Shown: piece by piece, positions 131 to 595 of the stretch | Layout: the number at the start of each line of letters is the position of its first letter | Position numbering within the stretch: position 1 is the first letter of the stretch | Notes under the pieces: model-generated | What the model saw: only the letters and a program-made list of their open reading frames with translations | The model's database searches: none | Told to the model about the DNA's origin: nothing | Translations under genes and position numbers: made by a program | Assembly: GCF_003334405.1 (NCBI RefSeq) | Contig: NZ_QOWM01000037.1 | Strand: one strand, 5' to 3' | DNA: 2,355 nt | Source of the DNA: Escherichia coli | GTDB taxonomy: Bacteria > Pseudomonadota > Gammaproteobacteria > Enterobacterales > Enterobacteriaceae

Positions 131-595
131 TTATTCTGCCTGTTCCGGCTTAGTCCTCTCAATGAGGAAATCTTCCATGAAATGCCCCTCATCAAGCAGC
201 TTCTGTAAAGCAAGCGGACGCTTTCCATTACCAGACCATTCTCTGATCTCGCCATTTTCATCCTTAAAGCGGTATTTAGCCTTTCTTACTCCGCCTTTGG
301 CTTTCCGCCTGGTTTTTACTGTATCTGCTGTTACAGGAGCAAGGAGTGATTCGGGATCAAGACCTAAAGATATGATGTATTCAATGGCCTGCTGACGTTT
401 GGCTTCAAGTTCCTGGCGTTCAGCCGCTTCACGTTCAGCATCTTCACGACGTTCTTCAACAACAACGTTCAGTTTTTCCTGCATTTCGAGCAATTGCTCA
501 AAATCAACTTCACGGGCAAAAACACGCAATGAACGAATATTCATCATAGTACGGCTGATAATACCGTATTCATCTTCTTTAGTCAGTTCGCTCAT
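131..595 (-). CDS. hns: H-NS-family DNA-binding nucleoid protein (plasmid/island-type H-NS paralogue), 154 aa
   Basis: Translation shows the H-NS architecture: N-terminal coiled-coil oligomerisation region (..MMNIRSLRVFAREVDFEQLLEMQEKLNVVVEERRE.. vs H-NS ..[35 protein letters not shown]..), a basic linker (KTRRKAKGGVRKAKY), and the C-terminal DNA-binding core YRFKDENGEIREWSGNGKRPLAL (H-NS: [23 protein letters not shown]), motif codons at 215..238. ATG at 593..595 with a strong Shine-Dalgarno AAGAGGA 8 nt upstream. Stop TAA at 131..133. Confidence 0.9.
   Translation of the reverse strand: MSELTKEDEYGIISRTMMNIRSLRVFAREVDFEQLLEMQEKLNVVVEERREDAEREAAERQELEAKRQQAIEYIISLGLDPESLLAPVTADTVKTRRKAKGGVRKAKYRFKDENGEIREWSGNGKRPLALQKLLDEGHFMEDFLIERTKPEQAE

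Follow-up and report, generated by a model that had tools for sequence, protein, structure and literature searches.

The locus analysed here raises the question of whether an H-NS-like protein that is longer than its chromosomal counterpart is an altered copy of H-NS or a member of a separate plasmid family, and of what its additional residues might do. The window, by which we mean the whole 2355-bp stretch of Escherichia coli DNA under study, carries at 131-595 a 154-residue open reading frame whose sequence is exactly as quoted in the preliminary description, where it was taken for an H-NS paralogue with an N-terminal insertion and an acidic C-terminal tail. Combining profile searches, comparison of homologous loci and structure prediction, we find that the gene very probably encodes an HppX-type (H-NS plasmid protein, IncX) nucleoid-associated silencer of an IncX4 conjugative plasmid, 154 residues long from the first ATG and co-transcribed with topB and hha.

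Genetic context

E. coli plasmid NZ_CP070012.1 (32.6 kb; typed IncX4, MOBP, MPF_T) contains the window with 100% identity. Matches occur in 1373 plasmid records, of which 753 cover at least 80% of the window, and the exact protein has been recorded on 343 contigs; recurrence on this scale excludes chance. All three genes of the window lie on the minus strand, in the order topB-hha-hns:

816-2355, minus strand: topB, plasmid type IA topoisomerase III, 3' part; the gene runs off the window
613-819, minus strand: hha, 68 residues, GTG start (NF008191, 107 bits against a cut-off of 90)
131-595, minus strand: hppX, the hns-like coding sequence, 154 residues, ATG start, TAA stop at 131-133; product identical to RefSeq WP_001694196.1

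The hha start overlaps the topB stop as GTGA at 816-819, and the plasmid-borne hha appears translationally coupled to topB. Given this overlap and a gap of just 17 nt between hha and hns, the three genes look like a single operon, in which hppX would be co-transcribed with plasmid topB and hha as the last gene of a tight module. A promoter and terminator scan of the window returned 6 promoter-like and 4 terminator-like sites, compared with 4.0 +/- 2.0 and 2.4 +/- 1.5 in shuffled sequences, and detected no promoter-like site above chance between topB, hha and hns; since the promoter counts are near the shuffle level, no internal hns promoter can be claimed. Other open reading frames overlapping 131-595 (90 and 66 residues on the plus strand, 59 and 33 on the minus strand) were set aside because the 154-residue frame holds both Pfam H-NS domains.

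The topB-hha-hns module is common to pCROD2, the IncX5 plasmid pBK31567 and pKPC-ECN49, and one IncX3 plasmid has topB-hns. Plasmid hha is present on the IncX4, IncX5 and pKPC-ECN49 plasmids examined and on the untyped CP070064, and is absent from R6K and IncX3. An Rfam search found nothing inside the window, its sole real match (AgrB, 62 bits) falling downstream in the parent plasmid. There, outside the window and about 220-700 bp downstream of hns (5327-5784 of the parent locus, L001), lies a type I toxin-antitoxin pair made up of an annotated dqlB (DinQ-like toxin) and the AgrB antisense RNA (RF02891, 62 bits, gathering score 40).

Immediately 3' of hppX the window contains a further element:

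71-120, no strand assigned: palindromic element, 11 nt after the hns stop codon

It comprises two copies of a perfect 12-bp palindrome, ACATACGTATGT, at 71-82 and 90-101, within a 19-nt inverted repeat. On the hns-sense strand, 71-120 forms a perfect 14-bp hairpin, and the 135-nt 3' region folds with z = -7.2 relative to shuffles. Because no U-run follows it, the hairpin is no canonical intrinsic terminator; candidate roles for the element are stabilisation of the mRNA 3' end, a Rho-related function and protein binding. No further copy occurs over 14 kb of the parent plasmid, and pCROD2 lacks the element.

Assignment to the HppX clade

Membership of the H-NS family follows from the presence of both H-NS Pfam domains:

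338-559, minus strand: N-terminal dimerisation/oligomerisation domain, Histone_HNS_N (PF22470), residues 13-86, E 5.7e-20
161-280, minus strand: C-terminal DNA-binding domain, Histone_HNS (PF00816), residues 106-145, E 8.7e-9

In phmmer searches the N-terminal domain matched PDB entries 3nr7, 1ov9, 1lr1 and 4icg, and the C-terminal domain has PDB matches 2l93, 1hnr and 2lrx; these entries are solved fragments of H-NS, VicH and StpA. The protein is indeed longer than E. coli H-NS (137 residues) and StpA (134 residues), the sequences compared being exactly HNS_ECOLI and STPA_ECOLI. It scores far under the NCBIfam equivalog cut-offs, with 107.3 bits against 211 for H-NS (NF008193) and 97.3 against 202 for StpA (NF007656), and is thus no orthologue of either. 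Nor is it a chromosomal paralogue: the protein is a plasmid-borne homologue of the HppX clade.

Several features place it in that clade, namely its location on an IncX4 plasmid next to topB, a divergent DNA-binding loop, an N-terminus extended beyond that of H-NS, an additional polar C-terminal tail, and Q39, which aligns with the H-NS dimerisation position L30, as does Q36 of Sfx. M18 aligns with N9 of H-NS. The 90%-identity cluster of the protein also contains 68-residue Hha proteins, probably through a clustering artefact for which fusion of hha and hns, or read-through between them, in some gene calls may be responsible. Database records also include frameshifted hns variants, for example P0071 (171 residues, annotated as 'Microcin DNA binding protein') and P0082.

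Translation start

Whether the extra N-terminal residues exist at all depends on the start codon, and the preliminary description had named initiation at an internal methionine as the event that would make them disappear. The following features bear on this point:

604-610, minus strand: Shine-Dalgarno sequence AAGAGGA, 8 nt upstream of the first ATG and within the 17-nt hha-hns spacer
560-586, minus strand: N-terminal extension, residues 4-12, LTKEDEYGI (MAFFT placement), readable equally as residues 1-9 added before helix alpha1
542-547, minus strand: internal Met17-Met18 codons, ATGATG, an alternative start with no upstream Shine-Dalgarno sequence

Both the position of the Shine-Dalgarno sequence and conservation at the protein level speak for the first ATG, which is likely to be the start codon. 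In seven homologous loci, too, the corresponding ATG has a purine-rich motif resembling a Shine-Dalgarno sequence in front of it. Between the window and pCROD2, extension codons 2-16 differ by 2 synonymous and 0 non-synonymous changes; against three distant homologues their pN/pS is 0.33-0.79, compared with 0.28-0.53 for codons 17-60. The overall range for codons 2-16, 0-0.79, is thus similar to that of the rest of the domain, a pattern indicating that they evolve as coding sequence.

Translation from Met17 or Met18 would instead yield a protein of canonical length, 137-138 residues, with the extension reduced to an untranslated leader. The ATGATG pair is placed to give just that length, and the close homologues P0064 (137 residues) and P0074 (136 residues) are annotated from there. 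We nevertheless judge such a start very improbable, since no Shine-Dalgarno sequence stands before Met17 and a strong one stands before the first ATG, and since the product would miss the residues equivalent to helix alpha1 of H-NS. Moreover, the extension is conserved as protein, with synonymous changes, in homologues that are only ~40-65% identical overall, and homologues with a 6-residue extension carry Leu/Thr at these positions and no internal Met. Deletion of the extension of Sfx has a phenotype, which implies that the Sfx extension is translated.

The N-terminal extension and its conservation

Starting from the first ATG, the expectation of about nine extra residues before the NIRSLR helix is confirmed, as H-NS receives a 9-residue gap immediately behind MSE in the MAFFT alignment, and the NCBIfam H-NS profile places residues 16-146 on profile positions 7-136 of 137, an N-terminal offset of 9 residues. 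We attempted to distinguish an internal insertion from an N-terminal addition, but the alignment fits both. Vibrio-type H-NS starts MSELTKTLLNIRSLR, so that a partition of the window protein into MSELTK, EDEYGIISR and TMMNIRSLR also fits an insertion or a duplication of helix alpha1; no repeat at the DNA level supports such a duplication.

The extension follows the motif x-[ED]-L-[TS]-[KR]-[ED]-[ED]-E-[YH]-x-I-[IV], which is kept in homologues only ~40-65% identical overall. Against the pKPC-ECN49 protein, 10 of 16 extension positions are identical, compared with 16 of 44 in the core of the N-terminal dimerisation domain. By the preliminary description, the finding would be refuted if alignments showed the extension to be ordinary within a well-described subfamily; alignments and published work show just that (PMC7544231, PMC11796372), so that the features are real but not remarkable. 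Relatives with an NGK- or RGR-type hook are mostly 143-160 residues long, and nearly all carry 6, 9 or 13 additional residues at the N-terminus and a polar tail 2-13 residues long, the exceptions being a few with 3-4 extra residues and P0064 and P0074, which are annotated from the internal Met. H-NS, StpA, Vibrio-type and IncHI2 proteins are without extension or tail, except for the Vibrio-type P0111, with 4 extra residues, and P0119.

This division recurs in a tblastn search of all plasmids. Alignments to small plasmids (~30-58 kb; four were typed, as IncX3, IncX4 or IncX5) start at residue 1 or 4 and end at residue 147, and those to most of the larger plasmids in the list (142-465 kb; one typed IncHI2) cover residues 15-145 only. 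A 157-residue homologue (P0016, 67% identical, with a 9-residue extension and NGK hook) is encoded at 4001-4474 of a 157-kb E. coli contig (L008), outside any topB-hha module and with neighbours encoding PerC, an OLD-family nuclease, a WYL-domain protein and an outer-membrane protein; its position indicates that the subtype has also moved into a genomic island or large plasmid.

Among the loci compared, the type of extension shows no correlation with a co-encoded hha. The 9-residue form accompanies hha in the window, pCROD2, CP070064 and pKPC-ECN49 and occurs without it in locus L010, and the 6-residue form accompanies hha on IncX5 and occurs without it on IncX3 and R6K.

A model of the N-terminal-domain dimer, built as one chain with an artificial Gly-Ser linker, reached a pTM of 0.72 and contains helices at residues 6-18, 20-28 and 32-61 with pLDDT >95. 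The extension is therein predicted to lengthen helix alpha1 (residues 6-18) by about two turns and not to form a floppy tag; in chromosomal H-NS, alpha1 covers roughly residues 2-8. A Foldseek search of the linked model against the PDB gave only meaningless matches (best E 6.7), an artificial single-chain dimer not being comparable with deposited single chains.

DNA-binding loop, C-terminal tail and mosaicism

The C-terminal half carries two further departures from H-NS, both of which had been noticed before:

215-238, minus strand: DNA-binding loop WSGNGKRP, residues 120-127, with hook N-G-K in place of Q-G-R (H-NS) or R-G-R (Sfx, HppX3)
134-160, minus strand: C-terminal tail ERTKPEQAE, residues 146-154, after FLI; hypervariable among homologues and at a recombination breakpoint

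The alignment bears out the variant loop, with WSGNGKRP standing where H-NS has TWTGQGRTP. The family alignment shows no variation at W120, G122, G124 and P127, and the W-x-G-x-G-x-x-P loop is thereby preserved; the Q-G-R 'AT-hook-like' triplet is replaced at the equivalent positions by N-G-K, followed by R. Nor does the protein have the R-G-R hook of the Sfx clade (Wang, Cordova & Navarre 2024). RGR is found in 25 of 31 IncX H-NS homologues (PMC11796372), and by its sequence the NGK hook puts the window protein in the minority of that set, with 6 of the 31.

As for the tail, its existence stands but its acidity was overstated. The protein ends FLIERTKPEQAE, seven residues beyond the FLIKQ end of H-NS, and with three acidic and two basic residues the tail is only mildly acidic. 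In the monomer model (mean pLDDT 76.5), tail residues 148-154 fall below 50 and the block 151-154 averages 38. By this prediction the tail is disordered, and it evolves fast.

Comparison of the window gene (131-595) with loci L002 and L003 (3200-4100 in each) reveals that hppX genes are recombination mosaics. pCROD2 and CP070064 are 98-99% identical in DNA from the topB 3' end through hha to about hns codon 60, and 48% identical over the remaining hns, where an NGK-type half switches to an RGR-type half. The window and pCROD2 reveal a further breakpoint at codon 146, with 98.4% identity over codons 61-146, 43% in the tail codons and unrelated DNA downstream of hns. This breakpoint explains why the tail is the most variable part. 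In database homologues the N-terminal type (9 or 6 residues), the hook (NGK or RGR) and the type of tail occur in every combination.

Discussion

Taken together, the plasmid context, domain content and clade-specific residues argue for an HppX protein, and the Shine-Dalgarno sequence and conserved extension for its translation from the first ATG. From characterised homologues we infer a mechanism in which the N-terminal domain would dimerise and polymerise into filaments on the plasmid, the C-terminal domain with its N-G-K-R hook would bind AT-rich DNA, and HppX would thereby coat its own plasmid in preference to the chromosome, keeping host H-NS off. It would also repress the MPF_T conjugation genes, probably jointly with Hha; for IncX4 such repression is inferred by analogy, the hook here being NGK and not the RGR that matters for Sfx.

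How the extension might enter into this mechanism is suggested by its predicted position. In H-NS, the alpha1-alpha2 surface serves both site-1 dimerisation and Hha binding, as structural work on H-NS/Hha has revealed (e.g. PDB 4icg), and a longer alpha1 could consequently tune partner choice. Deletion of D3-E8 in Sfx points the same way and lends support by analogy to the earlier proposal that the insertion could alter hetero-oligomerisation (PMC11796372). The Sfx extension is 6 residues long and of unrelated sequence, and function can therefore be transferred to the window extension by analogy only.

Two other roles for the protein can be weighed against that of a plasmid-dedicated silencer. 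It could be a general 'stealth' supplement of host H-NS in the manner of Sfh, occupying the same chromosomal AT-rich sites and so keeping the incoming plasmid from titrating H-NS. The pCROD2 protein, when expressed from a vector in E. coli, does bind the chromosome with an H-NS-like profile, and Sfx reportedly compensates in part for loss of hns (PMC11796372). In its native host, however, the pCROD2 protein shows little chromosomal binding and a ~40-fold preference for its own plasmid, a bias shared by Sfx and HppX3, and the Sfh-type IncHI2 protein (134 residues, QGR hook, neither extension nor tail) belongs to a different clade. We therefore regard a stealth role as quite improbable.

The altered N-terminus could alternatively produce mixed oligomers that poison host H-NS filaments and de-repress genes, making the protein a dominant-negative antagonist. 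Residues of the dimerisation site do differ from H-NS (M18 at N9, Q39 at L30), and the N9L mutation of H-NS is known to alter the interaction with Hha. Truncated H-NS antagonists are without a complete DNA-binding domain, though, and the window protein keeps one; in addition, its characterised relatives are repressors, and the pCROD2 protein and host H-NS do not mix but bind regions that are for the most part distinct. Antagonism of this kind seems to us extremely improbable. A plasmid-dedicated HppX silencer thus accounts best for the observations.

Within that reading, we also entertain a more specific proposal about the extension, which we think unlikely. ELTKEDEY-II could be a distinct, selectively maintained module that sets partner specificity, for example by docking plasmid Hha or excluding host H-NS from HppX filaments, with the NGK hook forming a second DNA-binding flavour within HppX. 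The idea draws on two observations: in distant comparisons the extension is better conserved than the remainder of the dimerisation domain (10/16 versus 16/44), and it recombines independently of the DNA-binding half. If true, this module would be one contributor to the as yet unexplained 'cognate plasmid specificity' that IncX silencers show.

IncX4 plasmids are important carriers of resistance genes, mcr-1 among them, and their H-NS-like silencer probably controls plasmid cost and transmissibility. The window itself adds no new biology; its extension is ordinary within a described and experimentally studied subfamily.

Comparison with known systems

Chromosomal H-NS and StpA share with the window protein the two-domain organisation, R21 (equivalent to R12), the NIRxLR helix and the W-x-G-x-G-x-x-P loop. 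They differ in overall sequence (47% and 40% identity, respectively), in the QGR hook and in having neither extension nor tail. Sfh/HppH of IncHI plasmids, which limits the cost of plasmid carriage, is likewise a plasmid-borne H-NS homologue, but is 134 residues long, has a canonical N-terminus, a QGR hook and no tail, and is unlinked to topB.

Closer in kind are the members of the HppX clade, named in 2020 (Fitzgerald et al.) and noted to be more diverse than any other H-NS clade and alone in having a divergent DNA-binding loop (PMC7544231). Like the window protein, Sfx of R6K (IncX2) and HppX3 (IncX3) belong to this clade and combine an adjoining topB with an N-terminal extension, a polar C-terminal tail and Q at H-NS L30; in IncX3 and IncX5 proteins with a Sfx-type N-terminus, R6K Sfx itself not being part of the alignment, 36-37 of 44 positions of the N-terminal-domain core are identical. 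In contrast, their extension has 6 residues of unrelated sequence (MSDNETFD...), with 0-1 of 13 positions identical in the IncX3 and IncX5 proteins of the Sfx 6-residue N-terminal type. They also carry an RGR hook, their central region, linker and DNA-binding domain are only ~40% identical, and R6K and IncX3 plasmids are without a plasmid hha. The Sfx extension, D3-E8, has already been named and deleted, with loss of heteromeric interactions and of conjugation repression, and Hha co-represses with Sfx (PMC11796372), whose binding and silencing depend on DNA topology (PMC13250579). HppX3 represses the T4SS promoter PactX and needs its own N-terminal domain for this (PMC11915502).

The closest characterised relative is the HppX of the Citrobacter rodentium IncX4 plasmid pCROD2, also of 154 residues and 94.8% identical (tblastn). 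The two proteins are identical over residues 1-16 and 61-145 and share the NGK hook and the topB-hha-hns operon; they differ by two conservative changes in residues 17-60 and in the tail, DKLQPGQVE in pCROD2 versus ERTKPEQAE in the window, where 3 of 9 positions agree. ChIP-seq found that the pCROD2 protein binds its own plasmid ~40-fold more selectively than does host H-NS, with an intrinsic sequence preference that is H-NS-like, and the authors propose that the adjoining plasmid topoisomerase makes the topology that it recognises (bioRxiv 10.64898/2026.06.14.732234). The HppX-clade protein, its extension and its plasmid-selective binding are thus already known from the literature, and the window gene takes its place among them as an IncX4 representative with a 9-residue extension and an NGK hook.
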